DNA from: Chloroflexota bacterium
GTDB lineage: Bacteria > Chloroflexota > Limnocylindria > Limnocylindrales > CSP1-4
DNA: 64,000 nt
Assembly: GCA_021802585.1 (NCBI GenBank)
Contig: JAJZRQ010000005.1
Span: 761 to 64,760, forward strand
Direction: 5' to 3'
The position numbers were made by a program, and so were the translations under genes. Position 1 is the stretch's first letter, and each line of letters begins with the position of its first letter. The notes below the pieces were generated by a model. It was not told the origin of the DNA and searched no databases. It saw only the letters and a program-made list of their open reading frames with translations. Shown piece after piece: positions 29,707 to 46,687 of this stretch.

Positions 29707-30672
29707 TCAGGACTCCTTTCGGGACAGGGCTTGGCGCTCGCGGTCGAGCCGGGCGTCGACCCGCTTCGCCTCGGCCTCCTCGTGGCGCACCAGCGCGAGG
29801 AGGAGCGCAGCACCCGGGATGAGGAGGGCGAGATCGCCGGTCAGCCACATGAGCGAGCCGGCGATCCGCTGGTCGGACAGGGCGTCGATGCCGAACGCGT
29901 CGGTCCGTCCGAGGTAGGCGGCGTAGAGGGGAGCGGCCGCGCCGATGATCGTGACGGCGAGGAAGCTCATCGGCGGCATCTGGGCCAGCAGCGCGATGAG
30001 CTTCGCGCCTGGGTGGAAGCGCCAGCGGAGCGGGTCAGGACTGAGGAGCGGCCACCAGAACAGGCAGGCCGCGCCGAGGTAGAGCAGGTGCTCTACCGCG
30101 TGGACCCCGTCGTCGAGGAGCGCTGCGTTGTACAGCGTCGTGAAGTGCGAGCCCCACATGACGCCGGCGAAGGCGACCCAGCCGACGACCGGGAACGTCA
30201 GCGAACTCACGACGCGGCTGTGGAGGAACGGCAGCAGGTACCGGTTCCGGACATCGGCCGACGCCGCCCGGAGGGCGAGCGTCCCGATGCCGCTCAGCGC
30301 GAACAGGGGCGCGGCGACCGACACGAGCAGGAGGTGCTGGACCATGTGGACACTGAGGAGGTCGTCGGACAGGGTGTCGACTGGCGAGAGCAAGGCCAGC
30401 CCGACGGCCGCCACGGCGGTGAGATAGGCAACCGTCCGTCGCGTGGGCCAGGGGTTCGCCCGATGGGCGAAGCTGACCGAGCGGGCAGCGGACACGTACG
30501 CGGTGACCGCCACGGCGAGCGCCAGAATCAGCGGAAGGTCGAGGTGCCAGGCCAGCGCGATGCCGAGCGGATCGGTCGGTGGCGGTCCCTGGGCAGCCCC
30601 GTGGGCGAGTGCGGTCGCTGGCGCCACGAGAGGGACGACGAGCGCGGCAAGGACCGCACGTGCGCGTCTCAC
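29707..30672 (-). CDS. Cytochrome c oxidase assembly factor CtaG-like / CopD-like membrane protein
   Basis: Signal peptide ending ALAHG and 7-8 TM segments. SVHMVQHLLL and AVEHLLYLG His motifs resemble the Caa3-CtaG family. Confidence 0.6.
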   Translation of the reverse strand: MRRARAVLAALVVPLVAPATALAHGAAQGPPPTDPLGIALAWHLDLPLILALAVAVTAYVSAARSVSFAHRANPWPTRRTVAYLTAVAAVGLALLSPVDTLSDDLLSVHMVQHLLLVSVAAPLFALSGIGTLALRAASADVRNRYLLPFLHSRVVSSLTFPVVGWVAFAGVMWGSHFTTLYNAALLDDGVHAVEHLLYLGAACLFWWPLLSPDPLRWRFHPGAKLIALLAQMPPMSFLAVTIIGAAAPLYAAYLGRTDAFGIDALSDQRIAGSLMWLTGDLALLIPGAALLLALVRHEEAEAKRVDARLDRERQALSRKES

Positions 30673-31250
30673 GTCGCCCGCCGCCGGAGCAGCCAGACGC
30701 CGATCGCCCCGATGACAAGGCTCGCGGCCAGGATCGGAAGGAGGACAACCCCGTCGCCGGCTGCCACGGTGTCACCCGGGACCGGCGTCGCGCTCGCGAG
30801 TGGCGACGGCGTGGTTGGGGCCGGGGTTGGTGAGGGCGATGCTGGTGTGGATGGCGCCGGTGACGGCGATGGCGACGGGCTCGGGGCCGCGACGACCGTG
30901 AACGTGTACGAATCGCGGGCGAGCTCGCCGTCCTCGGCCGAGAACGACGTCCAACGGACTTCGTACCCGCCGGGTGGTAGCTCGGGCAGGGCGAGGCGGA
31001 ACTCCCGAGGCCCATCGCCGAGCTCGCCGCCGCGCGCAACGGTCGTGCCGGATGCGTCGCGGACCTCGAGTGACGTCCGCGACGGGTCGAGGTCCTGGTT
31101 GAAGGTCGCGACGAGCTCGGTTGGTGAGCCCTCGACCTCCTCGCCTGGGCCCGGCAGGGCGGAGACGAGTTCAGCGTGGGCGAAGACGGGAGCGGCGACG
31201 AGCGACAGGAATGCCGCGGCAACGACCGCGCAAAGAAAGGGGCGCGCCAA
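30669..31250 (-). CDS. CopC-domain copper-binding protein with C-terminal TM anchor
   Basis: The mature N-terminus HAELVSALPG... and GGYEVRWTSFSAEDGELARDSYTFTV are typical CopC/YobA. TTG start after GGAGGTG. Confidence 0.8.
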   Translation of the reverse strand: MARPFLCAVVAAAFLSLVAAPVFAHAELVSALPGPGEEVEGSPTELVATFNQDLDPSRTSLEVRDASGTTVARGGELGDGPREFRLALPELPPGGYEVRWTSFSAEDGELARDSYTFTVVAAPSPSPSPSPAPSTPASPSPTPAPTTPSPLASATPVPGDTVAAGDGVVLLPILAASLVIGAIGVWLLRRRAT

Positions 31251-31305
31251 TGAGGCACCTCCGGAAGGTGATCACACCCTCCGGCAGCGAGGCTGGTGGG
31301 TGGGA

Positions 31306-32040
31306 TCAGGCTGGCTGAATCAGCCCGAGCGGTGGCGCCCGGACGCCGTTGCGGCGTCCCTCACGGCGACTGGCGGGCCGGTCGACGGCCAGCGCCGGGC
31401 GCAGGACCGCGACGACCGCCCGGAACCGGCGCCGCGCGGCCGCGCGGATGCGGGCGAGCAGAACCTCGCGACGCCAACCGACGAGTGCACCTACAGCCGC
31501 GACGGCAAGGCTGACCGCGAACAGGACCGGCAACGCGATCATGTGCTCACCGCCGAGGACGCCGAGGCCAGGCAACGGGGCCCCGATGCTCGCTGTCTCG
31601 ATGTTCTCCTGGATCAGATAGGCGGCAATCGTGCCGGCGGATACCCGGAGCCAGAGCGGGCCGAGGAGCTCGAGGAATCGGTCGAGGCCGCCGCCTTGGA
31701 GGCGCACCGTCCCCGCCTGGACGTCGGCCGCGAGTCGCCGAAGTCGCCGCCACTGCGCCGCCGCGACGACGCCCAGGCAGCCGGTCACGACCAGAACGAT
31801 GAGGACGAAGCTCGTCCAGTAGCGGTCGTGCCCGCTCTCCTGCATGGCCCTCGCATAGCCCTCGCCGAAGCCGTGGGCGAGCAGGTAGATCAGCTCGTGG
31901 CCGAGAGCCAAGGCCGCGAGGACCAGGGCGCCGGTGATCGTGAAGGCCCGGAGGCCATGACCGCTCACCGCATCAATGTACCGCGACGGCCGGATGAAGC
32001 CTCGCCGAGGGGCAGCGGAGCCTGACGACGGCGTTGGCAT
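31306..32040 (-). CDS. Hypothetical membrane protein
   Basis: Four hydrophobic segments; HELIYLLAHGFGEGY. No family recognised. Confidence 0.4.
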   Translation of the reverse strand: MPTPSSGSAAPRRGFIRPSRYIDAVSGHGLRAFTITGALVLAALALGHELIYLLAHGFGEGYARAMQESGHDRYWTSFVLIVLVVTGCLGVVAAAQWRRLRRLAADVQAGTVRLQGGGLDRFLELLGPLWLRVSAGTIAAYLIQENIETASIGAPLPGLGVLGGEHMIALPVLFAVSLAVAAVGALVGWRREVLLARIRAAARRRFRAVVAVLRPALAVDRPASRREGRRNGVRAPPLGLIQPA

Positions 32041-32091
32041 GTCGCGAACATCCAGCGGGGCGTCCTGTCAGCGCAGTAGATCGCCGCCCAT

Positions 32092-32409
32092 TCAGCGGAG
32101 TGCCGCCTCGATCCACTCGCGTAGCGGGATCCGCGCGAGTCCCCGGTCGGTCGGGTAGACGCGGCAGCGGGGCGTGTAGTCTCCCGGATCCTCGAATCCG
32201 GGCTGGACGTCGCGGCCGTCGATCCGAATCGACGGCGAGCCAGCGAAGCGGAGCCTCTCGGCGACGGCTGGGTCGGTCGCCTCGATGTCGCGGATTTCGG
32301 AGCCCGGTGACAACTCCGCGACGACCTCCGCGAGAAGTTTCCTGGCCGCCGGATGGTTGGGGCAGTCCGCGAACCACAGCAACTCGATGTCGTGTCGTCC
32401 TGTCACCAC
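32092..32409 (-). CDS. Small thioredoxin/glutaredoxin-fold protein (MerB-associated type)
   Basis: IELLWFADCPNH...LRFAGSPSIRIDGRDV resembles the small thioredoxin-fold proteins often found next to alkylmercury lyase genes. Confidence 0.5.
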   Translation of the reverse strand: MVTGRHDIELLWFADCPNHPAARKLLAEVVAELSPGSEIRDIEATDPAVAERLRFAGSPSIRIDGRDVQPGFEDPGDYTPRCRVYPTDRGLARIPLREWIEAALR

Positions 32410-32510
32410 TCGCCTCCAGCGCGGTTCAGTCGGCGGTATCGTACGCTCGTATACGGCATCGCGTATGAGAACCTGTCAGCTGCGATGCGATCGATTCGGA
32501 GGAGCCACCG

Positions 32511-33146
32511 GTGGCAGAAGCACTCGACACGGGCAGGCCGAACCTGGTAGCCGCGGATCTGCACGCGCGCGTCCGCGAGACCGCCTTCGCTCTGCTGATG
32601 AGGTCCGGGCGGCCGGTCCCGGCCGAGGAGATCGGCACCATAGCCGGCGTCCCGCTGAGCGGAATCACGCCGATGTTGGACGAGCTCGCCGGTGCCGGCT
32701 GGATCGACCGCGATCGTGAGGGTCGCGTCACGGGCTCGGGCGGCCTGAGCCTGACCGAAGGCCCGCACCGGCTCGCGATCGGCGGCCAGGCATTTCGCAA
32801 CTGGTGTGCCTACGACTCGTTGGGGATCGCGGCCGCGCTCGACGCGGACGCCGTTATCGAGACAACCTGCCCGGTCTGCGGCGGGCCGGTGCGGGTCGCA
32901 ACGGTCGGAGGAGAGCCACCCACCGAGCGACCCGAGCGACTCTGGCTCGCCGACGGCGGCACGGATCTCCGAGCGGACTTCTGCGCCCCGACGGTCATCC
33001 TCTGCTCACCCGAGCACGCCGACGTCTGGGCCGGGCGACAGGGTGGCCGCGGCCGCGTCATCGACCTCGCCGAGGGGGCGTCACTCGGACGGGAGGCCTG
33101 GGCAGGCTGCGCTCGGGCGGTCGCCCGCGTGGCCGGAGCGGCGTGA
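32511..33146 (+). CDS. merB: Organomercurial (alkylmercury) lyase-family protein
   Basis: N-terminal wHTH-like part, then FRNWCAYDSLGIAAAL (Cys/Asp catalytic pair pattern) and a later Cys-containing segment CPVCGGPV...FCAPTVILCSPEH. GTG after GGAGGAG. Confidence 0.7.
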   Translation: MAEALDTGRPNLVAADLHARVRETAFALLMRSGRPVPAEEIGTIAGVPLSGITPMLDELAGAGWIDRDREGRVTGSGGLSLTEGPHRLAIGGQAFRNWCAYDSLGIAAALDADAVIETTCPVCGGPVRVATVGGEPPTERPERLWLADGGTDLRADFCAPTVILCSPEHADVWAGRQGGRGRVIDLAEGASLGREAWAGCARAVARVAGAA

Positions 33147-33523
33147 TGACGAGCAACCTGCCCGTCGCGGCGGGCCGGCCGACCCTCGAGCGGTCCGCGG
33201 CGTTGGCCGCGTTCTTCCAGGGCATGTCGGATCCAACCCGGATGCGGATCCTCGAGCTTCTCGCGGAGCGGCCGCGAACCGTGACCGAGCTCGTCGACGA
33301 CCTCGGCCTCGTCCAGGGTCGGATCTCGTCGCACCTCACCTGCCTCCGCTGGTGCGGCTTCGTCCGGGCGGACGTCGAGGGTCGCTTCAACCGCTACCGC
33401 TTGGTCGACGATCGGATCCGCGACATCCTCCGCCTCGGCGAGGCGATCATCCGCGACAACGCCGATCGGCTCACCTCGTGTCTCGTCCTTGCCGCGGAGC
33501 ACGCTGGCGGAGAGGGTGACTAG
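33146..33523 (+). CDS. ArsR-family metalloregulator
   Basis: FFQGMSDPTRMRILELLAERPRTVTELVDDLGLVQGRISSHLTCLRWCGFV. The ATG overlaps the merB stop (TGATG). Confidence 0.85.
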   Translation: MTSNLPVAAGRPTLERSAALAAFFQGMSDPTRMRILELLAERPRTVTELVDDLGLVQGRISSHLTCLRWCGFVRADVEGRFNRYRLVDDRIRDILRLGEAIIRDNADRLTSCLVLAAEHAGGEGD

Positions 33524-33632
33524 AGGCCAGCGGTTGGATGCTGCCGCTGAGGCGAGCCTGGCGGGCCGCCGCGAGCGGGTGGCCTACCACCCTCCCCGGT
33601 GTGTCGGGCGGCTAGTCCGCTCGTTCGCTGGC

Positions 33633-33664
33633 TTGACATTGAACCCGACTTCAACGTGTAGGGT
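33633..33664 (+). promoter_or_regulatory. MerR-type promoter with long spacer and dyad
   Basis: TTGACA (33633-33638), 20-nt spacer containing ACATTGAA/TTCAACGT, then TAGGGT (33659-33664). ATG is 6 nt after the -10. Confidence 0.45.
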
Positions 33665-33670
33665 CCGGCC

Positions 33671-34426
33671 ATGAGCCTCTCGATCACGGAGATCTCCCGC
33701 CGGGCGGGCGTCTCGACCTCGACTCTTCGCTACTACGACCGCCTCGGTCTGCTCCCAAGCGCCGGCCGCGGCCAGAACGGCTATCGGCACTACGACGATC
33801 GGGCGCTCGATCGCCTCCGGTTCATCGCGCGGGCCAAGGAGCTCGGCTGCTCACTCGACGAGATCGCCACGCTCCTCACGGCGTTCGACGAAGACTGCGG
33901 CGAGGTTCAGACGCCGCTCCGTGAGCTGGTCGAAGGCAAGATCGCGACCGCCCAGCGTCGGGTGGCGGCGCTGGTCGGGCTGACCGCCCAACTCCAGGAG
34001 GCGCGCCACGCCCTCAGCGCGGAGACCTCGGCCGGGCCGTATGGTCCTGGCTGTGCGTGCGTCGACGCCGCCCCGCGGACTCAGCCCCCGCTGACCGGCC
34101 GGCCGCTGACCGTTGTCCAGCTTGCCGAGTCGGATCCGGCGATCGCCTGCACGCTCAGCCACGACGAGATGGGCGACCGGATCGCCGAGTGGCAGGCCGC
34201 TCTCACCCACGTCCGCGACCGGACGCCCGTCGACGGCGGGATTCGCCTGGCGCTCGGGCCGGATGCCGACCTTGCCGAAGTGACCCGGCTCGCCCGGGCC
34301 GAGTGGGCGTGCTGCTCGTTCTTCGCCTTCACGCTCACCGTCGACGGCCGTGGGTCCGCGCTCGAGGTGCGCGCGCCCGAGGCCGCCAAGGACCTGGTGG
34401 CGTCGGTCTTTGGAGTCGCCGCGTGA
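33671..34426 (+). CDS. MerR-family transcriptional regulator with extra C-terminal domain
   Basis: ITEISRRAGVSTSTLRYYDRLGLL...GYRHYDDRALDRLRFIARAKELGCSLDEI. Confidence 0.85.
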   Translation: MSLSITEISRRAGVSTSTLRYYDRLGLLPSAGRGQNGYRHYDDRALDRLRFIARAKELGCSLDEIATLLTAFDEDCGEVQTPLRELVEGKIATAQRRVAALVGLTAQLQEARHALSAETSAGPYGPGCACVDAAPRTQPPLTGRPLTVVQLAESDPAIACTLSHDEMGDRIAEWQAALTHVRDRTPVDGGIRLALGPDADLAEVTRLARAEWACCSFFAFTLTVDGRGSALEVRAPEAAKDLVASVFGVAA

Positions 34427-34462
34427 GGCTCAAGGCCGAGGTGGCCGTCATCGCTTCCGCGT

Positions 34463-34673
34463 GTGCCGCCTGCTGTGTTCCGCATCCCGACGCTCCAGCC
34501 ATCGAAGTTCGGCCGCACCTATGCGGCGTACGGCGGCTTCTTCATCGTGTTCAGCCTGCTGTGGGGTTGGTGGATCGACAAGCAGCAGCCTGACCGCTGG
34601 GACCTGATCGGCGCCGCCGTTTGCCCTGGTCGGAGTACTCCTGATCTTCTACGCGCCGCGATCTGCCTCGTAG
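34463..34673 (+). pseudogene. YnfA/UPF0060-family remnant (5-prime truncated, frameshifted)
   Basis: [39 protein letters not shown], then after one extra C (about 34625) [15 protein letters not shown]-stop (TAG 34671-34673). The roughly 40 N-terminal residues expected for this family are absent. Confidence 0.5.
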
Positions 34674-35523
34674 TCCAAGGTCGCCGCGGGCCGGCGAATC
34701 CTCGGACTCCTTCCGTTCCGGGGTTCTTCGTGACTGGGTTCGAGCTCGACGCCGTCTCCTTTGTCAAGGGGACACCATGACGAAGGCAGCGGCGAGGGGT
34801 GGCTTGGGTCGTGCACGGGCCAAGTCGACTACACAACATCATACACCGAAAAGTACTTCACAAACGCCGGAGCGGGCGCTAGGGTCTTCGTAGGCGGCCT
34901 GGGCCAGAGACGAGCGTCGTACCTCGCACGGACCCGGCCGCCGCCATCGCCCAGGTCGGGCATGGAGGAGCCCTCCGGCACGGGCTCCCGCGGCGACAGC
35001 CGCGATCTGGCCATAGCCGGCGCCGGGATCCATAGCGGTCCGTGGCGACAGCCGCACCTTTCCAACCACACATAGACGCTGCTAATCGCGCTTCTCTCGA
35101 TGCGCGATCGATGGCGAGGCGCGCCGACCGCTCAACCGAGCGGGCGGAGCTCCGGCCGGGCCTGAGACGACCGTTTCCGAGGACACCTCCTCGAACGATC
35201 CGAACGCCGGTCGGCGCTCCGCTCCTCGTGGGCGGTGGCGTGACCGGCTCGGACTCGTTCGGGCTCCTCGTCGACGGCCAGTCCTCGTCCCACCGGGCTT
35301 CGCTCGTTCGGGTGGCGGACCTACGTCCGCGCCGGAACGGAGGTGATGTCCAGGAAGGACGACTCTGAGCCGGCGGCGAGCGCGCCCGCCGGTGCTCAAC
35401 CGCAGTTGCGCGTCGGACCCGGGCCGATCCTCACCGATCGATTCAGAGGCAGCGTGCCGCGACTGCCTTGCCTGCCCGGTTCCGCCTTTGTGAGCGGCAC
35501 CCCGAACACGGAGGCACCAAGCC

Positions 35524-35766
35524 ATGCAGGCAATGGAAGCAACGACACCAGCGACGAAGGTCATCTACGGCGTGAACGAGCTCGATCTCGATCTCGCTGG
35601 GAAGTCCATCCGCGGGATCTGGAAGGTCCTCGAGCAGGTCCTGAACATCCCGCGCGACGCCGCGGTGTCGGTCAACGGCGACCGGGTCCAGGACGACTAC
35701 GTCGTCCGCCCGGGCGACGAGATCGAGTTCCAGAAGCAGGCGGGCGTGAAGGGCCTGGAGGCCTAG
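35524..35766 (+). CDS. ThiS/MoaD-like ubiquitin-like (beta-grasp) protein, Ubl-1
   Basis: 80 aa. ...AAVSVNGDRVQDDYVVRPGDEIEFQKQAGVKGLEA resembles sulfur-carrier/Ubl C-termini. ACGGAGG SD. First gene of the cassette. Confidence 0.6.
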   Translation: MQAMEATTPATKVIYGVNELDLDLAGKSIRGIWKVLEQVLNIPRDAAVSVNGDRVQDDYVVRPGDEIEFQKQAGVKGLEA

Positions 35767-35846
35767 ACGCCAGCCAGCGCGGATGCCCGGAGCCGGTGGA
35801 CCCTCCCACCCGGTTCCGGGCTCCCGCAGAGAGGAGCCCGAACGCC

Positions 35847-36617
35847 ATGCAATCGCGCACGTTCCTGCGCATCGAGGGCGACCTCGTGAGCCTGATCACG
35901 GAGGTCATCGACCGGGAGGTGACTCTTCCGGACCTCATGACCGAACTCACGACAGCTCAGGTCGCCATGACCCCTCGGCTGCCGACCGGCTGCCGCTTCT
36001 GGCTTCGCTCGGGGACGACCGACCGATCGGTCTTCGTCGTCGAGCAGCCCCCGTCGCGGCGGACGATCGAATACCACGCCAGCCGACGTCACGACAGCGA
36101 GCCGACCACCTATCGGCTCGCTGTGCCGTACGTGGTCTTCGTCGTCTGGACGATCGGCGAACAGGTCGAGGGACTAGCCACGTACTTCCGGGCGCAGCCG
36201 ATCGCGTCGCTCGACGCGACGCTGCTCTGCTCGACCCTGCCGAACACGAACGACGACGGCGTCGTCTGTCTCGGGTCGGTCCGGGTCAGCGGGGCGAGCG
36301 TCGGCGAACGGGTCGACGCACTGATCGGCGCGTTCTGGGCGAGCCGCTTCAACCAGGATCTCCGCCGGCACCCGCTGCCCTTCAACGGCGGCTTCCGGGC
36401 CTGGGCATCCCGCTCCCGGCGCGATCCGCTCGCGGCCCTGTCCCTGCAATACGACCCGTACTGGCGGACCCTCCGCCAGGTCGTGGCGCAGCTGGCCGGA
36501 CTCGCGATCACGGATCTGCCGGCCGGGGCACCCTTGCCGGAGGAACCGGCGGAGGCCGAGGTCCTGACCCCGGAACCTATGGCGGACGGAGGTGAGCCCG
36601 ATGCCCTCGCTTCGTGA
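35847..36617 (+). CDS. E2-like protein (putative Ubl-conjugating enzyme, candidate PRTRC protein-B-like)
   Basis: LPNTNDDGVVCLGSV mimics the UBC HPN-x5-G-x-(I/V)-C-L active-site motif. AGAGGAG SD before ATG 35847. Only the last 256 aa of ORF 35343..36617 look coding. Confidence 0.5.
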   Translation: MQSRTFLRIEGDLVSLITEVIDREVTLPDLMTELTTAQVAMTPRLPTGCRFWLRSGTTDRSVFVVEQPPSRRTIEYHASRRHDSEPTTYRLAVPYVVFVVWTIGEQVEGLATYFRAQPIASLDATLLCSTLPNTNDDGVVCLGSVRVSGASVGERVDALIGAFWASRFNQDLRRHPLPFNGGFRAWASRSRRDPLAALSLQYDPYWRTLRQVVAQLAGLAITDLPAGAPLPEEPAEAEVLTPEPMADGGEPDALAS

Positions 36618-36858
36618 CCACCTCATCCGGACGCCGGAGGTCCGCTCTCGGAATCTCAGCGCCTGGATGGCTCCCGCTCTCGGCGAACGAGCGACACCGC
36701 TGCCCGATCGATTCTTCGAGGAGGCCGCACTGACGGTGCTCGCCCACGTCTTCCGGGATGCGGGTCCCATCCGGGAGCAGCTCGTCTACGAGCGACGCCG
36801 CTTCGAGCGGTTGGTCCAACTCATCCACCGCCTGCCCGAACGGGCCGGAGGTGCGTGA
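36601..36858 (+). CDS. Small hypothetical protein of cassette 1
   Basis: ATG 36601 is 8 nt after GGAGGTG. It overlaps the previous gene by 17 nt and the next one by TGATG. No motif recognised. Confidence 0.4.
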   Translation: MPSLRDHLIRTPEVRSRNLSAWMAPALGERATPLPDRFFEEAALTVLAHVFRDAGPIREQLVYERRRFERLVQLIHRLPERAGGA

Positions 36859-37685
36859 TGTTTCCGATCCTCGAAGCCGGTCCATCGCTCGAGGGGGCGA
36901 CCCTGCCGGCCTTCGTCGTCGCTCGCGACGGGCTCTACCTGCGGAAGCGAAGCCTCCTCGGGCTGAGCCAGACGAAGGTCGGCCGGATCGCCCACCTGCC
37001 GGAGGGCAGGGAGTTCGTCGACTACGCGCTGCCCAAGGTCCCAGCCGACCTGATGGCGCGCGCGGTCGGCTTCTTCCGCGCCGTCTACCGGCTGCATAAG
37101 ACCGAGGCGGCCGTTCTCCTGGTCTGGCGTGACGCAGGCTTCGACCTCGTCGTGCCGGCCCAGAAGGTGTCCAGTGTCTCGGTCAAGTTCGACCTGGCGG
37201 ACGGCGACGTGCCGTCCGGCGGTCGACTCGTGGGGACGATCCACTCGCATGGGGGCTTCGGCGCCTATGCGAGCTCGATCGACGAGGACGACGAGGCGGA
37301 GCTCGATGGGCTCCACGTCGTCGTCGGCGACTTCGATCAACGACGGCTCGGCTACTCGGCCGCGATCGTCGTCGACGGCATCCGCTTCTCTCTGAAGACC
37401 GGTCAGCTCATCGAGCGGCCTCGGCGCCTCGCCGAGCCACCCGACGACTGGCTCCGGAAGGTGAAGCTGGCGCCGCCGCCCCGCCTCAAGGGCAAGCCGT
37501 CGATCAAGGAGTACCTCGCCCGGGGCTTCAAGCCCTCGGACGAGATCTCGAAGCCAAGTCGACGGGAGCTCGACGACGCGATCGAGAAGGCGAGCAAGCT
37601 CGCCACCGCCCTCGGCTACCGCCTCAGCTACTGGCTCGTGCCGGTCTCCGGCTCGAGCGAGAAGGGAGGCACGGCCGATGGCTGA
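36858..37685 (+). CDS. JAB/MPN (JAMM) metalloprotease, cassette 1
   Basis: Exact JAMM motif HSHGGFGAYASSID (H-x-H-x7-S-x2-D) with upstream Glu (HKTEAAVLL). About 110-aa C-terminal extension. Confidence 0.8.
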   Translation: MFPILEAGPSLEGATLPAFVVARDGLYLRKRSLLGLSQTKVGRIAHLPEGREFVDYALPKVPADLMARAVGFFRAVYRLHKTEAAVLLVWRDAGFDLVVPAQKVSSVSVKFDLADGDVPSGGRLVGTIHSHGGFGAYASSIDEDDEAELDGLHVVVGDFDQRRLGYSAAIVVDGIRFSLKTGQLIERPRRLAEPPDDWLRKVKLAPPPRLKGKPSIKEYLARGFKPSDEISKPSRRELDDAIEKASKLATALGYRLSYWLVPVSGSSEKGGTADG

Positions 37686-38376
37686 CCGGATCGTCCTCGT
37701 CGGCTGCGGCGGGATCGGGAGCCAGTTGCTCCCGCCGCTCGTCCGCTACCTCGCGAACCGGCCCGAACCGCGCTCGCTCCTGGTCCTCGTCGACGGCGAC
37801 GTCTTCGAGCCCGGGAACCGATCGCGACAGGCCTGCTCGACCAGCGATCTGGGCTCGAACAAGGCCGAGGCCCTGGCCCGGGTCGCACGAGACGATGGGC
37901 TCGCCGTCCAGGCCATCCCCGAGTTCCTCGACGAGACCAACGTCCGGTCGATCGTCCGCGAGGGAGACATCGTCCTCCTCGCGGTCGACAACCACCGGGC
38001 GCGGGCCCTCGTCGATCGACATCTCGGATCGCTCGACGACGCGACGCTCATCAGCGGCGGCAACGACGAGACGGACGGCAACGTCCAGCTCGTCCGCCGC
38101 CGTGACGGCTGGTCCGTGGACGGCCATCTGACCGAGATCCACCCGGAGATCGGCATGGCCACTGTAGAGGAACCGCGCGGCGACGGCTGCCAGGCAATGG
38201 CGGCCGAACATCCGCAGCTCCTCGTGACGAACCTGATGGTCGCCAGCGCGATGCTCAGCTGCCTCTGGCAGATCAGTGAGCGCGGCAGCGTCCCCTACAG
38301 CGAGGTCTACCTCGACGCCATCCAGAACGCGGCCCGCAGCCGCTCCTGGTTCCGCGTCCCGGCCGGCGCGCAGTAG
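37678..38376 (+). CDS. ThiF/MoeB-type E1-like adenylyltransferase, cassette 1
   Basis: VGCGGIGS nucleotide loop, DGDVFEPGNRSRQ, GSNKAEA and AVDNHRAR are the canonical E1 adenylation-site residues. Confidence 0.85.
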   Translation: MADRIVLVGCGGIGSQLLPPLVRYLANRPEPRSLLVLVDGDVFEPGNRSRQACSTSDLGSNKAEALARVARDDGLAVQAIPEFLDETNVRSIVREGDIVLLAVDNHRARALVDRHLGSLDDATLISGGNDETDGNVQLVRRRDGWSVDGHLTEIHPEIGMATVEEPRGDGCQAMAAEHPQLLVTNLMVASAMLSCLWQISERGSVPYSEVYLDAIQNAARSRSWFRVPAGAQ

Positions 38377-38454
38377 GGAGTGTGGACCCACAGGTGCACA
38401 ACCCGGCCGAGGCGGCGCCCACCGGCGTCCCTCGGCCGAACGATCTCAGGCGGC

Positions 38455-38486
38455 TTTGTTACAGGACTTGAAACAATTGTCACAAA
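38455..38486. promoter_or_regulatory. AT-rich inverted repeat ahead of the ATPase gene
   Basis: TTTGTTACA-14 nt-TGTCACAAA (8/9 complementary), in a locally AT-rich patch. Confidence 0.3.
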
Positions 38487-39619
38487 CGCGATCGACGAAC
38501 CCGTTCCGACCTGGTAGCGGGATCCTCCCGCCGCTCTTGGCTGGGCGCGAGCGCGAGACGGCTGCCTTCGAGGCGCGCGTTGCGCGGACCCGCGAGGGCC
38601 AGCCGCAGCACACGGCGCTGCTCGGCGAATGGGCGATCGGCAAGACGACGCTCCTGATGCACTGGCGACGCCTGCGACAGCAGGCTGGCGACGCCGTCGT
38701 CCTTTCGATGGCATACCCGCAGTCGGCGGACGAGTTCCTCGCCGGTCTCGTCACGGCGATCGATGCCGAACTTGGGACGGACTGGCCGCGGCGTCTCGAC
38801 GTGGAGCTGGGCGTCGATATCGGAATCGCCGACGCTCGGTTCCGCCGGACCGCCCCGAACTCCGAGAGGGAGTTGCGCGCGGCATTGCGACGACTCGTCG
38901 AGCACCGCGCGGACGAGGACCGGTCCGTGGTCGTCTTGCTCGATGACGTCGACCTGCTGCGTGAGACCGGGGACGTGCTCCTGCGCCTGCGCGCCTGTGC
39001 CCTCGAGCTCTACGCGGCCGACCTGCCGCTCGCATTCATCGTGGCGGCGTCCCCAGGCCTGTTCACGGAGGTGCGATCGGCTCACGAGCCGCTGGTCCGG
39101 TTCTTCGAGCCGCTGACTGTCGGTCCGCTCGATGACTCGGACGCCGCGCGAGCCCTGGCCGAACCGCTCGCGGAAACAACCGTTCGATTCGACCCCGACG
39201 TGGTCGCCGAGATCGTGGACCTCGCCGGCGGACGACCCTACTACCTTCAGAAGCTCGGCTACTACACGTTTGACGCCGCGGGCAACGGGCGGGTCACACA
39301 GGCCGAGTTCGCGGTCGCCTTCGAGCGAGCGTTTGCCTCCGTAAGCCAGGAGATCTTCGCCGCTCGCTGGGCCGGTATGTCCCCGATCGACCGCCAGGTT
39401 GTGGCCGTCGTCGCCCGCAGCACCGAGCCGCGCCCCTCGGGCGACATCGAAGCCGAGGCGGCGCGACGCGGAGTGAGGCCGGGAGCCGCCCGGCAATCGC
39501 TGCGCCGTCTTGCGTCGAAGGGCCAGATCGACCGGCTCGCCAACGGGCACCGCGGCCGTTACGAGGTTCGGGATCGGCTCTTCAAGCGGTACCTGGAACT
39601 GCAGACATGCGAGCCGTAG
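38468..39619 (+). CDS. AAA/ORC-like (archaeal-ATPase-type) ATP-binding protein with C-terminal wHTH
   Basis: NPFRPGSGILPPLLAGRERE, Walker A GEWAIGKTT, Walker B VVVLLDDVD, C-terminal LRRLASKGQIDRL. Start TTG 38468 or 38477 (uncertain). Confidence 0.75.
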   Translation: MKQLSQTRSTNPFRPGSGILPPLLAGRERETAAFEARVARTREGQPQHTALLGEWAIGKTTLLMHWRRLRQQAGDAVVLSMAYPQSADEFLAGLVTAIDAELGTDWPRRLDVELGVDIGIADARFRRTAPNSERELRAALRRLVEHRADEDRSVVVLLDDVDLLRETGDVLLRLRACALELYAADLPLAFIVAASPGLFTEVRSAHEPLVRFFEPLTVGPLDDSDAARALAEPLAETTVRFDPDVVAEIVDLAGGRPYYLQKLGYYTFDAAGNGRVTQAEFAVAFERAFASVSQEIFAARWAGMSPIDRQVVAVVARSTEPRPSGDIEAEAARRGVRPGAARQSLRRLASKGQIDRLANGHRGRYEVRDRLFKRYLELQTCEP

Positions 39620-40557
39620 CCGTCGCAAGCGCTGTTCCCAGACTCGACGAGTTCGCGCTTGCCGACGTCATCTCCGAGTACCTCTCCGCCTTGAAGGTCG
39701 CCGGCAGGAGCCCGAAGACGATCAGTTGGTATGCCGACATGCTCTGGGAGTTCGTCCGGTTCATCGAGCGTGAGGGGGTTCGGGCGACGGTCGCGGACGT
39801 CGCCCCCGTCGAGGTGCGGCGCTGGCTGCTGGCAATCCAATCACGACGAACGCGAAGCCTTGCCCCAAGCAGCATGGCCGCCCGCGTCCGGACCGTGAAG
39901 GCGTTTGGGACCTGGATCGCGAACGAGCTTGATCTGCCGGCGAACCCGGTTCGGGGTGTGCCGGTTCCTCGTGTCCCCGAACTTCTCGTTCCTAGCCTTC
40001 GGGAACCCGACATCCTTGCCCTTCTAAGAACCCTCGATGCAGGTTCTCAGCAGCCCGAGCGCGACCGGGCGATCGTCCTGCTGCTGCTCGATACGGGTCT
40101 GCGCCTGAGTGAGGCCGCCAACCTTCGAATTCGCGACGTCGACCTCATCGAGGGTCGGTGCCGCGTGATGGGAAAGGGCGGACGAGAGCGCGTAGTGCCA
40201 GTTGGCCGAAAGACCCGTCGCGCTCTCCGTCATTGTCTCGCGCGCCGGGGAAGGCTCCTGCCCGACGAGGCTCTGTTCATCGGCCGCGGTGGTCGGGCGC
40301 TCGCTCCCCGCGGCATTCAGCAGCTCGTCCGCCGACTGAGCCGCCGCACCACGCTCGCGTCGCGATGCTCACCTCACGTCCTTCGCCATACCTTTGCCCG
40401 ATCGTTTCTTGCGAACGGTGGCGACGTGTTCTCGCTTCAGCGAATCCTCGGCCACAGCCCATCGTCCCTTCAGGTCACTCGTCGGTACGTCGACCTGCTC
40501 GATGACGACCTCCGCGCGGTACACCGTGAGGCCTCACCGGTCGACCGTCTGGGCTAG
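39607..40557 (+). CDS. Tyrosine recombinase/integrase (XerC/D-like), Int-1
   Basis: LLLLDTGLRLSEA (Arg), HVLRHTFA (H-x-x-R), LGHS...TRRY (His, Tyr). The ATG overlaps the ATPase gene end by 13 nt. Confidence 0.9.
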   Translation: MRAVAVASAVPRLDEFALADVISEYLSALKVAGRSPKTISWYADMLWEFVRFIEREGVRATVADVAPVEVRRWLLAIQSRRTRSLAPSSMAARVRTVKAFGTWIANELDLPANPVRGVPVPRVPELLVPSLREPDILALLRTLDAGSQQPERDRAIVLLLLDTGLRLSEAANLRIRDVDLIEGRCRVMGKGGRERVVPVGRKTRRALRHCLARRGRLLPDEALFIGRGGRALAPRGIQQLVRRLSRRTTLASRCSPHVLRHTFARSFLANGGDVFSLQRILGHSPSSLQVTRRYVDLLDDDLRAVHREASPVDRLG

Positions 40558-40561
40558 CTCC

Positions 40562-40579
40562 AGGCGGATTGGCCCGCGA
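40562..40579. repeat. Degenerate copy of the tRNA-Gln 3-prime end plus flank (att-like)
   Basis: AGGCGGA-TTGGCCCGCGA compared with AGGCGGAGTTGGCTGGCGA at 46532-46550; same orientation, 16 identical positions. Confidence 0.4.
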
Positions 40580-40600
40580 CGCTCGCGCTGAGCCACCGTG

Positions 40601-41464
40601 TCAGCCGCTTGGGTCCCAGAACAAGATCAGAACCTGGTAGGTCGTATTCACCAGTTCATATTTCACAACGCGGCGCTTGCCCGCTAGATCGATACGAAGT
40701 TCCTCGCCACCGACGACCACTGCGGGTTTGGTCAGATCGGCGGCTGAACGAAGCCAGGTCTCGGGCGGGTCGGCAATCACCACAGGCACCTTCGGCGGCC
40801 CGAATCGCTCAATCCATGACGGCGACGCGGTGACCTCATTGCGGCGGTAACGAAGGGGTTCGCGACTCAGCGGCGATGGTTCCAGCGCGATCGCAAGCAC
40901 GGGGCGATGATGAGTCCGTGCAAATGCCCGCAATGTTGCACGGATTGACGCCCCAAAGAGACCCGCGATGGTCACGACCGAGGCCATCTCCAATCGGTGC
41001 TGCGCGGCGATGCGACGGATGAAGTCGTGTTGGAACAGCAGAAGCGAGGCGCCCTCATTGGCCTCCCGTTCAAACAAACGCCGGGTCGCCGGCGAGAGAT
41101 CGACGTCGTCGTCGACTACGACGAGATCCGTCTGCCATGGCGCGATGTGATGGACGACTTCATGAAGTCGATTGAAATTTCGTCGCCCGTGGATCGCGAT
41201 GGCGGGGTCGAGGTGAATCTCGCGTTCGCGGCGATCGAGCAACGCACGGATCTTGAAGCGAAAGGGAGCGATCGCCGCGCGAAGGTACTGCGGTGCGCGC
41301 GAGAGGACGGAATCGGAGAGGACTGACTCGCTGGCCTCCCGCAGGTTGCCGGCGGCCACGATGTCGTCGATAGGGGTCGGCAATCGTCCGAGCGCGCCAG
41401 CATCCAGGAGGAGCCGGTGGGTCAACCGGCTAATCTCGTCGGGATGCTCGGCATCGCCGGTCAT
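40601..41464 (-). CDS. ImmA/IrrE-family zinc metallopeptidase
   Basis: HEVVHH (HExxH) followed by FEREANEGASLLLF, as in ImmA/IrrE/CapP peptidases. Starts 2 nt after the stop of the XRE gene. Confidence 0.7.
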   Translation of the reverse strand: MTGDAEHPDEISRLTHRLLLDAGALGRLPTPIDDIVAAGNLREASESVLSDSVLSRAPQYLRAAIAPFRFKIRALLDRREREIHLDPAIAIHGRRNFNRLHEVVHHIAPWQTDLVVVDDDVDLSPATRRLFEREANEGASLLLFQHDFIRRIAAQHRLEMASVVTIAGLFGASIRATLRAFARTHHRPVLAIALEPSPLSREPLRYRRNEVTASPSWIERFGPPKVPVVIADPPETWLRSAADLTKPAVVVGGEELRIDLAGKRRVVKYELVNTTYQVLILFWDPSG

Positions 41465-41466
41465 CC

Positions 41467-41817
41467 TCAGCCCTCGCGGCTGCGCTCGTGCCGATACCAG
41501 GACAGGTATCGGGCCAGCTCTTCCACCTCTGCCGCCGAGAGATCCTCTGCATTCAGGGCATGAGCAAGGATATTCACGGAGGCGTCGCCTCGACCCGCTC
41601 GAGGGACGACATGGCCGGCAAGCTCCATTAGGTCTCGATACGGAATGGCCAGTGCTGCCGCCAGGCGATGTAGGACCGCCGGCGACGGTTGCTTGACCTC
41701 GCCTCGTTCGATCTTCTGAAGATATGGCGGACTGATGCCCGCCTTCGCAGCCGTGCCGCGGAGGGAAAACTCCTTCAGTTCACGGACTTCGCGCAGGCGT
41801 CGTCCGAGATCACCCAT
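41467..41817 (-). CDS. XRE-family HTH transcriptional regulator
   Basis: LRGTAAKAGISPPYLQKIERGEVKQPSPAVLHRLAAAL. ATG 41817 follows AAGGAGGA. Only the last 116 aa of ORF 41467..42198 are real. Confidence 0.85.
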   Translation of the reverse strand: MGDLGRRLREVRELKEFSLRGTAAKAGISPPYLQKIERGEVKQPSPAVLHRLAAALAIPYRDLMELAGHVVPRAGRGDASVNILAHALNAEDLSAAEVEELARYLSWYRHERSREG

Positions 41818-41862
41818 CGAATCCTCCTTCTCGTTCACCGACGGCGTGACTGTACACTCCAG

Positions 41863-41892
41863 TTGACATCTTCGCAACCTCTCAGCTAGCAT
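41863..41892 (+). promoter_or_regulatory. Sigma-70-like promoter of the Ubl-2 operon
   Basis: TTGACA (41863-41868), 18 nt, then TAGCAT (41887-41892), in the 108-bp divergent region between the XRE gene and Ubl-2. Confidence 0.4.
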
Positions 41893-41925
41893 GGGCCGCG
41901 TAACCCGTAGTGAACGGAGGATCCA

Positions 41926-42207
41926 GTGGTGAACGAACAGGACAAGGTCAGGGACAGCATCAAGGTAACGGTCACTTTCCCCCTCGGCGAGGGGCCCTAC
42001 CACGATGACGTGCCACCGGACACGACGGTCGGCGATGTCCGATCGGCAGCCATGCGCGGCTTCGGCGTGACTGAGGATCCGGCATTGCTCTTCTACCTCA
42101 TTCACGCCGGCGACAGGATCGACGACGGTCGGACGATCGGCGACGTGGCCGGCCACGCGGCAGCCGTCAAGTTCACCCTCGCCCGCGAGATCATTCAAGG
42201 GGCCTGA
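41926..42207 (+). CDS. Ubiquitin-like beta-grasp protein, Ubl-2
   Basis: 93 aa. IKVTVTFPLG...TTVGDVRSAAMRGFGV...YLIHAGDRIDDGRTIGDV...VKFTLAREIIQGA fits the alternating beta/alpha pattern of prokaryotic Ubl domains. GTG follows GGAGGA. Confidence 0.55.
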   Translation: MVNEQDKVRDSIKVTVTFPLGEGPYHDDVPPDTTVGDVRSAAMRGFGVTEDPALLFYLIHAGDRIDDGRTIGDVAGHAAAVKFTLAREIIQGA

Positions 42208-42644
42208 TGGATATCGAGAGCCAGCTGCGCCTCGACGAGGACGTTGAGGCGGTCGCCTTCTACCTTGACGAGAATGGCGGTCGCCTCGACGCCGATCCGG
42301 CTGGCGAGGCCGGCGTTTGGTGGGCCACGATGCGGCCCCGCACTATCCCCGAGGAGCAGTACTACGTTCGGATCGGCTGGCTCCGATACCCGGACGCGCC
42401 TCCCTCGGTCAAGTTCGGAACCGCCGTCGGCGGTTCACTTGGCATCACGGCCGCGTGGCCCGTCGTGCCGAGCTATCGGCCAGGCAATTTCGATATCTGC
42501 GCTCCGTTCACAAAAGAGGGGTTCGAATCGCATCCGGAGTGGGCCGCCCAGTTCCCGTGGCCCACGACCGGCAACCCTTTTCTGTGGATCGTGGACATCG
42601 TCCAGGGGCACCTTGACCGCTCGTACCAGGGGCGATCGGGATGA
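42207..42644 (+). CDS. UBC-like E2 (Ubl-conjugating enzyme)
   Basis: YPDAPPSVKF mirrors the E2 YPxxPPxVxF motif. A candidate catalytic Cys sits in NFDICAPF about 35 aa later. TGATG overlap with Ubl-2. Confidence 0.65.
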   Translation: MDIESQLRLDEDVEAVAFYLDENGGRLDADPAGEAGVWWATMRPRTIPEEQYYVRIGWLRYPDAPPSVKFGTAVGGSLGITAAWPVVPSYRPGNFDICAPFTKEGFESHPEWAAQFPWPTTGNPFLWIVDIVQGHLDRSYQGRSG

Positions 42645-43126
42645 CCGGTCTCGAACTACCGGCGGCTGCGCTGGCGCGCCTGCTCGCCGATGTCGTTCGG
42701 TTTGGTGACAACGGCCTCGAGACGGGTGCGGTGCTGCTCTCGTCCCGTCGTGACAGTCATGCCGATGTCCTAGCACTGTGCGGCGAGCACGGAATTGAGC
42801 GCCGTCCCGACCAGTTCGTAATAAGTGGCGCCGCCCTCGCCCAACTGTTCGACTGGGCAGACGAGGCAGGGGCCCGGGTTATCGCTCAGGTGCATTCGCA
42901 TGGCGGACTCGCGCGGATGTCCCCAACGGACCGACGGTTCGGGCTCACCGTCGAGGGCTTCACGAGCGCCATCGTCCCGCACTTCGGTCGACCGCCAAAT
43001 GATCCGGCGGCATGGGGATGGTGGCGGTTTCAGGACCAGGTCTGGGTGCCCTCCGACCCTGGATCAGCTGTAGCGGCCCCGAGCCGGACGGTCATCTTCG
43101 ACGAGGAGGGAGTTCGTGCCGGCTGA
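42641..43126 (+). CDS. JAB/MPN (JAMM) metalloprotease, cassette 2
   Basis: ETGAVLL Glu and HSHGGLARMSPTD (JAMM with one residue less in the spacer). ATGA overlap with E2. Confidence 0.75.
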   Translation: MTGLELPAAALARLLADVVRFGDNGLETGAVLLSSRRDSHADVLALCGEHGIERRPDQFVISGAALAQLFDWADEAGARVIAQVHSHGGLARMSPTDRRFGLTVEGFTSAIVPHFGRPPNDPAAWGWWRFQDQVWVPSDPGSAVAAPSRTVIFDEEGVRAG

Positions 43127-44630
43127 TCACTCCCGCGCGCTTCTCCTCGGGCAGAACGTGACCGACCAGCCGCAGAGCGAGCTCGCTCAGCGACTCGAGG
43201 GCGCGAGCGTTTCGATCGACATCGACCTCGGCATTCCCGGTGCTGTCTTGACCGCGTCGATCCTCGTTCGGACCCTCCGGCGCCTCCCTGGGCGCATTTC
43301 GATCGACCCCGATGAACTGCCCACCTCGCTGGTCGAGCGGCTCCGCGTCGAGGCCGAGGCCATCGATCCGGATCGACCCATCGCCGTTGGCCGGCCTCGG
43401 GCTGGTGACACGATCATCCGAATCGGCACCACGGGGCCGCCCGGGTCATTGCGCGTCATCCCAGATCTGCACGGCTTCCGCCTCTCGTGGGCGAGCAACT
43501 CCCTTCAACAGGGGAAACCTGCTTCCGCTCTGGGATCGGCCGCGGCTGCTGCTGCTGCCGCCGCCGAGACCTTCAAGGTGGCGGCCCGCGTAATCGGAGT
43601 TCGGGGCCGTCGCCATCGCCGTCTGGCATGGTGCCCGGTCACACTTTCCCATCGGCCCGCTCAAGGCCCGGATCTTCCGCGCGACTGGCAGTTGGACGGC
43701 CTCCTCCTCGGGCTGGGGGCGATCGGGTCGGCAACCGCGCTGATCCTCTCCGAGCTGCCGGTTGAGGGGTCGCTCGACCTCGTCGACCCGCAACGGTTCG
43801 CACCCGAGAACGTCGGGACGTATTCGCTCGGCGGTGCCAAGGAGGCTCTCGATCAGCCGTGGAAGACCTCCGTGGCCGCGAGCGCCCTGAGACGATTCGA
43901 GACGAGGAGCTGGAATGCGGTCGCGGCGTATCTGCCCGAACTCATCGACGCAGGCCGACTCCGGTGGCCCCCGATCGTCCTAACAGGACTCGACTCGCCT
44001 GACGCACGCCGCGACTCCCAACGTCTTTGGCCGGATCACCTAATCGATGGAGCCACAGGCGACACGATGGTCGGCCTTCATGCGATTACCGCTGTCGGCC
44101 GGCCTTGCCTCGCATGCTTCTTCCCGCCGACGGCGACGCCCACGGTCTCGCCCACGCGGGAGCTGGAGCGTGCGACGGGATTGCCGACGGAGTTACTTGT
44201 GCGAGGCGCGGAGATCCTGCTCGAGGCGCATCTCGAAGGTCTCTCGGTGGCGCACCAGGAGCGTCTGCGCCCCTTTGTCGGCAGGGAGATCTGCGGGCTT
44301 GCGAGTGCGCTTGGGCTGACGGAGCTGCCCGACGAGGGATACCGACCATCGGTCGCCTTTGTGTCGCTGACCGCCGCGACTCTCGTCGTCGGGCGGCTGG
44401 TCGCGATCGCTGCGGGCTGGCGGACTGCATCCAACTTCGTGCAGTACGACACGCTCGCCGGCCCGCGCCAGCCGACGCGCGAGTGGCGGACCGCGCGGCC
44501 CGCATGCGATTGCGTGCAGCGCGCAGGCGTCGTCGCGGAAGTGAGACGCCGCCGGGCTGCGTATCGGTTTGTCGACCGACCGCCGTCGATCGGCCATGAT
44601 CGGATGACGCCAGCGTCGAACGAGGCTTGA
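43116..44630 (+). CDS. E1-like Ubl-activating enzyme (long form with N-terminal extra domain)
   Basis: C-terminal half: GLGAIGS loop, PWKTSVAA Lys, GLDSPDARR Asp, Zn pairs CLAC and CDC. About 200-aa N-terminal domain without a nucleotide loop. Confidence 0.75.
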   Translation: MPADHSRALLLGQNVTDQPQSELAQRLEGASVSIDIDLGIPGAVLTASILVRTLRRLPGRISIDPDELPTSLVERLRVEAEAIDPDRPIAVGRPRAGDTIIRIGTTGPPGSLRVIPDLHGFRLSWASNSLQQGKPASALGSAAAAAAAAAETFKVAARVIGVRGRRHRRLAWCPVTLSHRPAQGPDLPRDWQLDGLLLGLGAIGSATALILSELPVEGSLDLVDPQRFAPENVGTYSLGGAKEALDQPWKTSVAASALRRFETRSWNAVAAYLPELIDAGRLRWPPIVLTGLDSPDARRDSQRLWPDHLIDGATGDTMVGLHAITAVGRPCLACFFPPTATPTVSPTRELERATGLPTELLVRGAEILLEAHLEGLSVAHQERLRPFVGREICGLASALGLTELPDEGYRPSVAFVSLTAATLVVGRLVAIAAGWRTASNFVQYDTLAGPRQPTREWRTARPACDCVQRAGVVAEVRRRRAAYRFVDRPPSIGHDRMTPASNEA

Positions 44631-44636
44631 TCGAGG

Positions 44637-45455: not shown

Positions 45456-45485
45456 GGCTCCGGACACGATCCCTCGGACGACTGC

Positions 45486-46439: not shown

Positions 46440-46510
46440 GTCCGTCGCCTCCTGCGACGGACCACCGTTCGGGGCTCCGACCACGACATCTGGTGCTCCG
46501 GGTCCTCATT

Positions 46511-46529
46511 GACCACAACATCTTGTGGT
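46511..46529 (-). terminator. Short hairpin just downstream of tRNA-Gln-1
   Basis: ACCACAA-CATC-TTGTGGT (7-bp stem); no U-tract. Confidence 0.25.
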
Positions 46530-46540
46530 TTGAGGCGGAG

Positions 46541-46615: not shown

Positions 46616-46687
46616 AGCGATGCCGCAGCGGCGCCCAGAGTCTACCGCGTCGGCTGCGGCCGCCTCAACCGCGGGTCGCCGGTCGCC

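Follow-up and report, generated by a model that had tools for sequence, protein, structure and literature searches.

We analysed a stretch of 64,000 nucleotides (nt) from a Chloroflexota bacterium (contig JAJZRQ010000005.1, positions 761 to 64,760; hereafter the window). The DNA of the window has a high GC content of ~70%, and our subject was a cassette of five genes at positions 35524-38376 of its plus strand. A check of the open reading frames (ORFs) gave the gene order ubiquitin-like protein (Ubl), E2-like protein, a protein of 85 amino acids (aa), JAMM peptidase and ThiF-type E1. With the sequence in front of it, the cassette makes up a single module of 3.6 kb (34826-38441) that comprises an operator-like repeat, a promoter, a leader RNA and five coupled genes, the roles of the repeat and the promoter being putative. 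The features of the module are as follows.

34830-34846, plus strand: direct repeat TACAC-N7-TACAC at the left edge of the module, where homology among loci starts
34857-34885, plus strand: putative promoter, TTCACA-17 nt-TAGGGT (TAnnnT-type -10), as read from the sequence
34892-35523, plus strand: structured leader RNA or RNA gene of ~640 nt, with a conserved structured core at 34937-35498
35524-35766, plus strand: Ubl precursor, 80 aa, with an invariant AGVKG (Gly77) followed by the three-residue tail LEA
35847-36617, plus strand: E2-like protein, 256 aa, containing LPNTNDDGVVCLG, with LPN133-x7-C141
36601-36858, plus strand: small fast-evolving protein, 85 aa (88 aa with a GTG start at 36592)
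36858-37685, plus strand: JAMM/MPN+ metallopeptidase (JAB), 275 aa (276 aa with a GTG start at 36855), with extra N- and C-terminal regions
37678-38376, plus strand: minimal ThiF-type E1, 232 aa, with an invariant Cys171

The Ubl and E2-like genes are separated by a gap of 80 nt. The three junctions that follow (E2-like/small protein, small protein/JAB and JAB/E1) all overlap, suggesting that the last genes are translationally coupled. An earlier note on this DNA, made from the sequence alone, had listed the same five parts as overlapping or tightly spaced ORFs; all five lay on the plus strand at the coordinates it gave, and the parts list and the spacing proved correct. The motifs it had read in them were also present: the E2-type Asn...Cys motif with canonical spacing, the exact JAMM motif and the full set of adenylation residues in the E1. 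It overlooked the ~640-nt structured RNA directly upstream of the Ubl gene.

The module and its leader RNA

The 3.6-kb module was shared by more than 60 related loci, nearly all of them from Chloroflexota. Species-representative genomes contributed 25 loci, 24 of them in Chloroflexota metagenome-assembled genomes (MAGs; Limnocylindria-like) and one in an Acidimicrobiia MAG. The cassette genes were in the same order in all 25. Because this order was kept both in the genome loci and in metagenome loci linked through the leader, the five-gene arrangement is not due to chance. Comparison of the loci further revealed third-position variation of the coding type in the Ubl gene.

Nucleotide homology among the loci showed a sharp onset at 34824-34935. 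Its end varied, lying at ~38441, at ~39620 (past an ATPase gene) or at ~40551 (past a recombinase gene). Two or three copies of the module, 78-96% identical and mosaic, were present in each of three MAGs. Between loci L010 and L012, identity was 78% for the E2-like protein and 93% for the JAB. Many copies of the module were located at contig ends, and the window's own sequence was fragmented in metagenome assemblies; both are as expected for repeated DNA. Searches of 72,556 plasmids (by tblastn), 50,697 phage genomes and IMG/VR found no relatives.

The leader was conserved to the same degree as the genes. Its substitutions had no period-3 pattern, and its indels were not multiples of three. 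Folding of 21 leaders with RNAalifold gave 132 base pairs, 27 of which had compensatory changes, and a counting test on the same set showed that 95.8% of cells pair. The number of pairs with double changes (27) compared with 12.0±2.1 in shuffled data (0 of 500) and 3-10 in slid controls. G-U cells outnumbered A-C cells by 266 to 27, an asymmetry that points to the plus strand as the folded strand; RNAalifold energies for the two strands (-402.8 versus -382.7) were not decisive. The window leader itself had a minimum free energy of -354 kcal/mol (z = -8.95).

A 22-base motif of the leader was found in 53 metagenome loci, 43 of which had enough downstream sequence to show what follows it. In 38 of these 43, the Ubl gene began 190-256 nt on, with the E2-like gene next where the contig continued. 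When the structure taken from the first leader set was applied to new metagenome leaders, 90.8% of cells paired in 30 non-redundant, independent leaders (54-92% identical to the window), as compared with 32-43% in slid controls. No Rfam match at E≤1 was obtained in 33000-47500 except for tRNA-Gln, and five related loci gave none at the gathering threshold. Very conserved unpaired blocks of the leader include GGAGGTGAT, a perfect complement of the 3′ tail of 16S rRNA. A protein-coding reading of 34830-35523, including a 424-aa ORF from 35343, was also considered and was rejected on the missing period-3 pattern, the frame-breaking indels and stop codons in other loci.

Upstream of the leader, TACAC-N5-8-TACAC had a single match in the 64 kb, against 0.02 expected, and variants of it occurred at the same place in other loci. 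It is a possible operator or recombinase-arm site. The position of the putative promoter was conserved in the alignment (TTCACA/TTGA.. and TAGGGT/TAGCGT); a strict sigma-70 scan did not call it.

Some loci departed from the usual arrangement. In L052, L081 and L082, three of the 43 loci, the leader motif led within ~100-170 nt into the 3′ portion of the E1 gene, with the ATPase gene after it. They look like deletion variants in which the leader has become joined to an E1 remnant through loss of the four preceding genes (Ubl, E2-like protein, small protein and JAB) and the greater part of the E1 gene. In L060 and L083, the leader motif was present and no cassette protein was detected downstream; these could have different downstream genes or be decayed copies.

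The cassette proteins and their family

The sole family match of the Ubl was to Pfam ThiS, at 19.8 bits (cut-off 22.5). At the C-terminus, AGVKG was invariant in the homologues of 17 loci and was followed by 1-3 variable residues, among them LGA, R, RSA, INA and HAR. The Ubls of distant relatives terminated in KG or KGQII. Type II BilA likewise has a conserved Gly with a variable tail, and the JAB enzyme BilC was shown to cut after that Gly (Chambers et al., PMC10557695).

The 275-aa protein belongs to the JAMM/MPN+ family by its metal-binding motif E...H-x-H-x7-S-x2-D, in which the Glu is a candidate (E83). The motif itself, H-x-H-x7-S-x2-D, is the segment HSHGGFGAYASSID. Among 19 homologues, HSH...S..D was invariant and the candidate upstream Glu (in TEAAVLL) was conserved. 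The score against Pfam Prok-JAB was 23.1 bits (cut-off 25), and the closest solved relative was Rpn11, in an alignment that spans the motif. The 232-aa protein belongs with the E1/ThiF/MoeB adenylating enzymes by its score against Pfam ThiF (PF00899; 68.9 bits, cut-off 28.1) and by its adenylation residues, which align with those of MoeB (GxGxxG, DxD..N.xRQ, K and D-N). The GC at positions 170-171 was invariant within an otherwise variable loop. MoeB and MccB were its nearest solved relatives.

The 85-aa protein had no family match in Pfam, NCBIfam, PADLOC or PHROGs. Present in 24 of the 25 loci at 38-95% identity, it is the fastest-evolving part of the cassette; a set of charged residues was conserved despite the fast divergence. 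Distant relatives encode a protein of 86-209 aa at the equivalent position.

For the E2-like protein, we found 241 close homologues with 68-94% identity, and a profile search of 1.84 billion representatives gave 1516 relatives (E≤1e-3). Some relatives are fusion proteins of 370-860 aa, and the N-terminal regions of the large fusions (P0155-P0259) matched nothing in Pfam or PADLOC. Against Pfam Prok-E2_D (PF14460), the window protein scored 23.3 bits (cut-off 25) and relative P0149 scored 29.2; precomputed PF14460 matches exist for many close homologues. In an alignment of 31 sequences with 24-77% identity, including relatives at 24-37%, Asn133 and Cys141 were at least 90% conserved, and a FWxSxFNxDL...W block was near-invariant. 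Asn and Cys stand 8 positions apart, exactly as in the HPN...C of UbcH5. His175 was invariant in the close family and was not so in the wider alignment. When the protein was compared by hhalign with seven ubiquitin-conjugating (UBC) domains, LPNTNDDGVVCLG was placed on HPNINSNGSICLD with the active sites aligned; the match was weak, with a probability of 14.7% (P = 0.0018).

An AlphaFold (AF2) model of the E2-like protein built from 30 distant representatives reached a predicted local distance difference test (pLDDT) score of 87.5 and a predicted template modelling (pTM) score of 0.75; with 19 close homologues as input, the pLDDT was 39. In the model, an N-terminal hairpin is followed by a helix and a meander of six strands, after which come the Cys loop and then helices. 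A Foldseek search against 350,542 PDB chains, many E2s included, gave no match at E≤1e-3 and no E2 among the top 50, and a search of PDB sequences with the sequence profile was empty. In BFVD, five uncharacterised Caudovirales phage proteins shared the predicted fold (Foldseek E 4e-9 to 8e-4). The earlier note had tied its assignment to a UBC-like fold or to a Cys conserved in homologues: the Cys was indeed conserved, even in distant homologues, while the model at pLDDT 87.5 had no UBC-like match in the PDB. E2 status of the 256-aa protein is plausible from motif and modelled topology, without confirmation from fold comparison.

Relatives with ~30% identity in the E2-like protein came from one Moranbacteria MAG and from other metagenome contigs of Candidate Phyla Radiation (CPR) and phage-like types. 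They kept the order E2 (214-232 aa), X (86-209 aa), JAB (290-348 aa) and ThiF (231-240 aa). A Ubl gene of 68-72 aa lay directly upstream in all distant relatives examined except L038 and L039, in which no Ubl gene was found upstream of the E2 gene. The contigs that carry the L036 and L045 cassettes look phage-like: their numerous small ORFs run in one direction, and they have tRNA genes, Endonuclease_7 and a weak match to Acb1.

In the CPR-type relatives, a non-coding spacer of 290-850 nt lies between the Ubl and E2 genes (L038:7535-8003, L040:6312-7035 and L044:897-1746). It contains strongly conserved blocks such as ACGGCGGGGGTGGTTCGTCCTCGCAAA, and a terminator-like hairpin with a T-run stands right before the E2 Shine-Dalgarno sequence. 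The spacer had no Rfam match and no obvious likeness to the Chloroflexota leader. This different non-coding block with its terminator hints that RNA control is recurrent across the whole cassette family.

Judged by its gene content, the cassette is best labelled as a member of the '6d' operon class of Iyer, Burroughs & Aravind 2006, or Pfam Prok-E2_D. The parts given in row 6d of their Table 1 (PMC1779556) are a Ubl, an E1-like protein, a JAB that has an additional N-terminal domain, an E2-like protein in which the His of HPN is missing, and a helical protein that diverges rapidly. The cassette has this five-part composition, its order is the same in distant relatives, and both it and class 6d are tied to mobile DNA. 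The 85-aa protein is a candidate equivalent of the 'novel alpha-helical protein' of the class. There are also differences. The 'absolutely conserved His after the Cys' of 6d is matched by His175 in the close family only; the E2-like protein falls below the PF14460 cut-off (23.3 versus 25); and the cassette has a Chloroflexota host, the ~640-nt structured leader, and ATPase and recombinase genes downstream. A search of the literature for PRTRC, Prok-E2 and 6A-MBL found no functional study of the 6d or PRTRC class.

The earlier note had likened the cassette to PRTRC. The likeness was real in that the best NCBIfam matches of three proteins were PRTRC_A (JAB), PRTRC_B (E2-like protein) and PRTRC_ThiF (E1), and in that both occur on mobile elements. 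However, the scores were 2-6 times under the cut-offs of TIGR03735, TIGR03737 and TIGR03736 (A, 33.5 versus 101.8 bits; B, 20.7 versus 131.45; ThiF, 68.1 versus 144.75). PRTRC_B matches occurred in only 17 of the 31 family members and were all weak (best E 8.5e-8). The Ubl and the small protein had no PRTRC match, and PRTRC C, D, E and F were absent from the cassette. No ParB domain was found among genes within ~10 kb of the cassette in the window and the related loci, the rest of the 64-kb window being unscanned for ParB. These sub-cut-off scores, together with the missing ParB and C-F partners, place the cassette in a sister lineage of PRTRC within the Prok-E2_D-like group rather than in PRTRC proper.

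A second cassette of this general kind, at 41926-44630, is Bil-like. It starts 3.5 kb past the E1 stop, somewhat closer than the ~4 kb that had been given. The two had been described as non-orthologous and not recognisably similar; BLASTP between the counterparts agreed, giving only a 24-residue match at the JAMM motif (E 4e-4). With PADLOC, the five-gene cassette had no BilA, BilB or BilC match, and its weak BilD match (9.5e-7) came through the generic E1 domain, so it does not belong to Bil. The two systems share four roles (Ubl, E2, JAB and E1), and in both the Ubl has a conserved Gly and then a variable tail, for whose removal the JAB is the expected enzyme. They differ in the E1, which has 232 aa in the cassette, whereas that of Bil has ~450-500 aa and includes an inactive adenylation domain; in the additional 85-aa protein; and in the type of E2, with no sequence similarity beyond the JAMM motif.

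The archaeal and bacterial Ubl systems that work without an E2 (SAMP/UbaA/HvJAMM1 and TtuB/TtuC) resemble the cassette in their small ThiS/MoaD-like Ubl, single-domain ThiF-type E1 and JAMM peptidase. Those systems have no E2-like component and also serve sulfur transfer, whereas in the cassette a Cys-bearing protein is a dedicated partner and genes for sulfur transfer are absent from the vicinity.

Island context and function of the module

Two further genes follow the cassette in the window.

38477-39619, plus strand: AAA_16/ATPase_2-type NTPase, 380 aa, with a C-terminal winged-helix-like region (Pfam AAA_16, 58.1 bits)
39607-40557, plus strand: XerC/D-like tyrosine recombinase Int1 (Phage_integrase, 117.7 bits; TIGR02224, 201 bits), overlapping the ATPase stop by 13 nt

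The ATPase gene followed the E1 gene in most loci. Its product carries the motif NPFRPGxGxxPPxLAGR and, at 25-76% identity, is a more variable candidate partner. Int1 lay downstream of the cassette, usually directly past the ATPase, in L001, L010, L011, L023, L025 and L026-L031. In L010, L023 and L025, Int1 was followed by 3-4 kb of other DNA and then by an inverted second recombinase, with a tRNA-Gln beyond it in L010 and L025. The region that the window holds in this slot (XRE/M78/Bil, 40601-45455) was absent from the same slot in all three loci. The Bil-like operon is therefore variable cargo, occupying a slot between two recombinases, and the five-gene cassette is the constant part. Upstream flanks of other module copies often held metal-resistance genes, as in L026 (ChrA, a cation diffusion facilitator (CDF) transporter and a P-type ATPase). 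These findings indicate a family of Chloroflexota chromosomal islands that have the module as their conserved unit, with variable cargo such as metal resistance and the Bil-like operon on its flanks.

The reading that we favour, with confidence somewhat above even, is that the module is a diverged 6d/Prok-E2_D/PRTRC-like Ubl conjugation system that most likely serves the island itself. The JAMM peptidase would trim the tail of 1-3 residues from the Ubl and expose Gly77. The minimal E1 would then adenylate Gly77 and probably load the Ubl on Cys171. From there, the Ubl would be handed to Cys141 of the E2-like protein and then to lysines of target proteins, with the 85-aa protein as a putative adaptor or specificity factor. 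The JAMM peptidase may be able to reverse the conjugation as well, and the leader RNA would gate expression. Conjugation could control maintenance or excision of the element, or host factors that act on the element. Our preference for an island function comes from the constancy of the module, its multi-copy mosaic distribution and the frequent ATPase and recombinase genes downstream. A role as a cargo defence gene set is less likely than a function for the element itself.

Several points weigh against this reading. The beta-grasp identity of the Ubl depends on a sub-threshold Pfam ThiS match. Foldseek matched the confident model of the E2-like protein with no solved E2, and the profile match to UBC is weak; the role of Cys141 as a thioester carrier is therefore only putative, and the protein may be no thioester carrier whatsoever. 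The finding of multiple copies per genome depends on MAG binning. As to island ends and att sites, no att repeat or tRNA-Gln fragment was found at the left end, and no att repeat at the far side from the tRNA-Gln genes. In view of the metal-resistance flanks, the module may lie within larger resistance islands without being their core.

A different reading would make the module an anti-phage or anti-mobile-element defence system like Bil, carried as cargo, with the Ubl conjugated to phage proteins. The characterised systems that combine an E1, an E2, a JAB and a Ubl (Bil and CBASS Cap2/Cap3) are defence systems; however, PADLOC matched only the generic E1 domain in the window and in ten distant relatives. 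The cassette is close to a Bil-like operon with CapH/CapP-like regulators, yet the module was constant across loci whereas that operon was variable. The earlier note had taken the two systems as accumulated at one locus and hence as defence. Both systems are present; with one of them constant and the other in a variable slot, their co-location says little about the role of the five-gene cassette. A STAND-like AAA_16 ATPase is encoded downstream, one distant relative adjoins AbiEii, and protection against invasive replicons was put forward as one option by Iyer et al. (PMC1779556). On the other side, two or three diverged copies per MAG are unusual for a defence system, and the related cassettes on phage-like contigs and the E2-like fold in phage proteins fit an element-side function at least equally well. 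We regard a defence role as rather unlikely, though it is a serious rival and the strongest of the alternatives.

It is less probable still, and in our view quite doubtful, that the Ubl chemistry is independent of an E2, as in SAMP/UbaA or TtuB/TtuC-like systems, with the E1 alone performing the transfer and the 256-aa protein acting as a substrate, scaffold or target-recognition subunit. Near-invariant Asn133 and Cys141 at the exact UBC spacing would be unexpected in a non-catalytic scaffold, and it was precisely the Asn-Cys segment that hhalign placed on the UBC active site. The failure of a well-scored model (pLDDT 87.5, pTM 0.75) to find a significant match among the PDB chains, the empty PDB profile search and a Pfam match under the gathering score would fit such a role; however, the order of the elements (helix, beta-meander, Cys loop and helices) is compatible with a UBC core to which strands have been added.

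A sulfur-carrier or cofactor/metabolite pathway (ThiS/ThiF, MoaD/MoeB or CysO/Mec+), in which the Ubl would end as a thiocarboxylate, is highly improbable: the only family match of the Ubl is a weak one to ThiS, MoeB and MccB are the nearest solved relatives of the E1 and JAMM proteins act in the CysO pathway, but no thiG, thiH, moaE, cysM or sulfurtransferase/rhodanese gene occurs in the cassette or its 10-kb flanks in the window and related loci, the E1 lacks a rhodanese domain and CxxC motifs, the module is mobile, multi-copy and often trailed by the ATPase and recombinase, and the Ubl has a tail that needs removal, as is typical of conjugation systems.

Beyond acting as a passive 5′ UTR, the leader RNA could be a functional partner of the Ubl system, either as a large sensor that gates the operon when it receives an element or host signal or as a scaffold or guide of Ubl conjugation. 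We offer this as a speculative idea of low probability. If it were true, the leader would represent a new class of large non-coding RNA, one that goes with the Ubl cassettes of mobile elements.

The class of gene set has been known computationally since 2006. What is new here is the Chloroflexota lineage with its island context, the demonstration that PRTRC membership fails, the lack of a solved structural relative for the E2-like component, and the dedicated large structured leader, which is supported by covariation and absent from Rfam. Cassettes of the 6d/PRTRC type are widespread on mobile DNA. In this lineage the set is compact, with five genes and clear limits; Gly77, Cys141, Cys171 and the JAMM site are obvious residues to mutate, and more than 60 loci provide a natural comparison set. 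Should the module serve the island and not host defence, ubiquitin-like tagging would have a new use in bacteria. The dedicated ~640-nt leader would bring a large, previously undescribed RNA element into a field that knows little about regulation.

Neighbouring genes and minor observations

An AT-richer segment, TTGTTACAGGACTTGAAACAATTGTCACAAA, lies between the E1 and ATPase genes (38441-38476) and coincides with the homology break among loci. It may be a separate promoter or the recombination joint of the ATPase module.

In the neighbouring Bil-like cassette, the PADLOC E-values were 1.7e-8 for BilA, 0.02 for BilB, 1.6e-12 for BilC and 1.7e-14 for BilD. The cassette is divergent from genes for an XRE helix-turn-helix (HTH) protein and an M78/IrrE-like peptidase, which resemble the CapH/CapP regulators. 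A 272-aa protein encoded after it had a faint match to a proteasome subunit (E 0.047) and is possibly an N-terminal nucleophile (Ntn)/proteasome-like protein.

Farther downstream, a glutaminyl-tRNA synthetase gene lies between two tRNA-Gln(CTG) genes (46542-46616 and 48468-48542) that are 95% identical. The second recombinase of the window (45486-46484, minus strand) abuts the 3′ end of the first tRNA-Gln, as is usual for tRNA-targeted islands.

Upstream of the module, 29707-34426 is a metal-resistance cluster with Caa3_CtaG/CopD-like, CopC, MerB, ArsR-type HTH and MerR genes. Between this cluster and the module, a candidate gene for a YnfA-like small membrane protein was noted by eye at 34463-34672. 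Its reading frame is continuous only if a frameshift near 34620 is allowed for, and the candidate is either a pseudogene or the product of a sequencing error.

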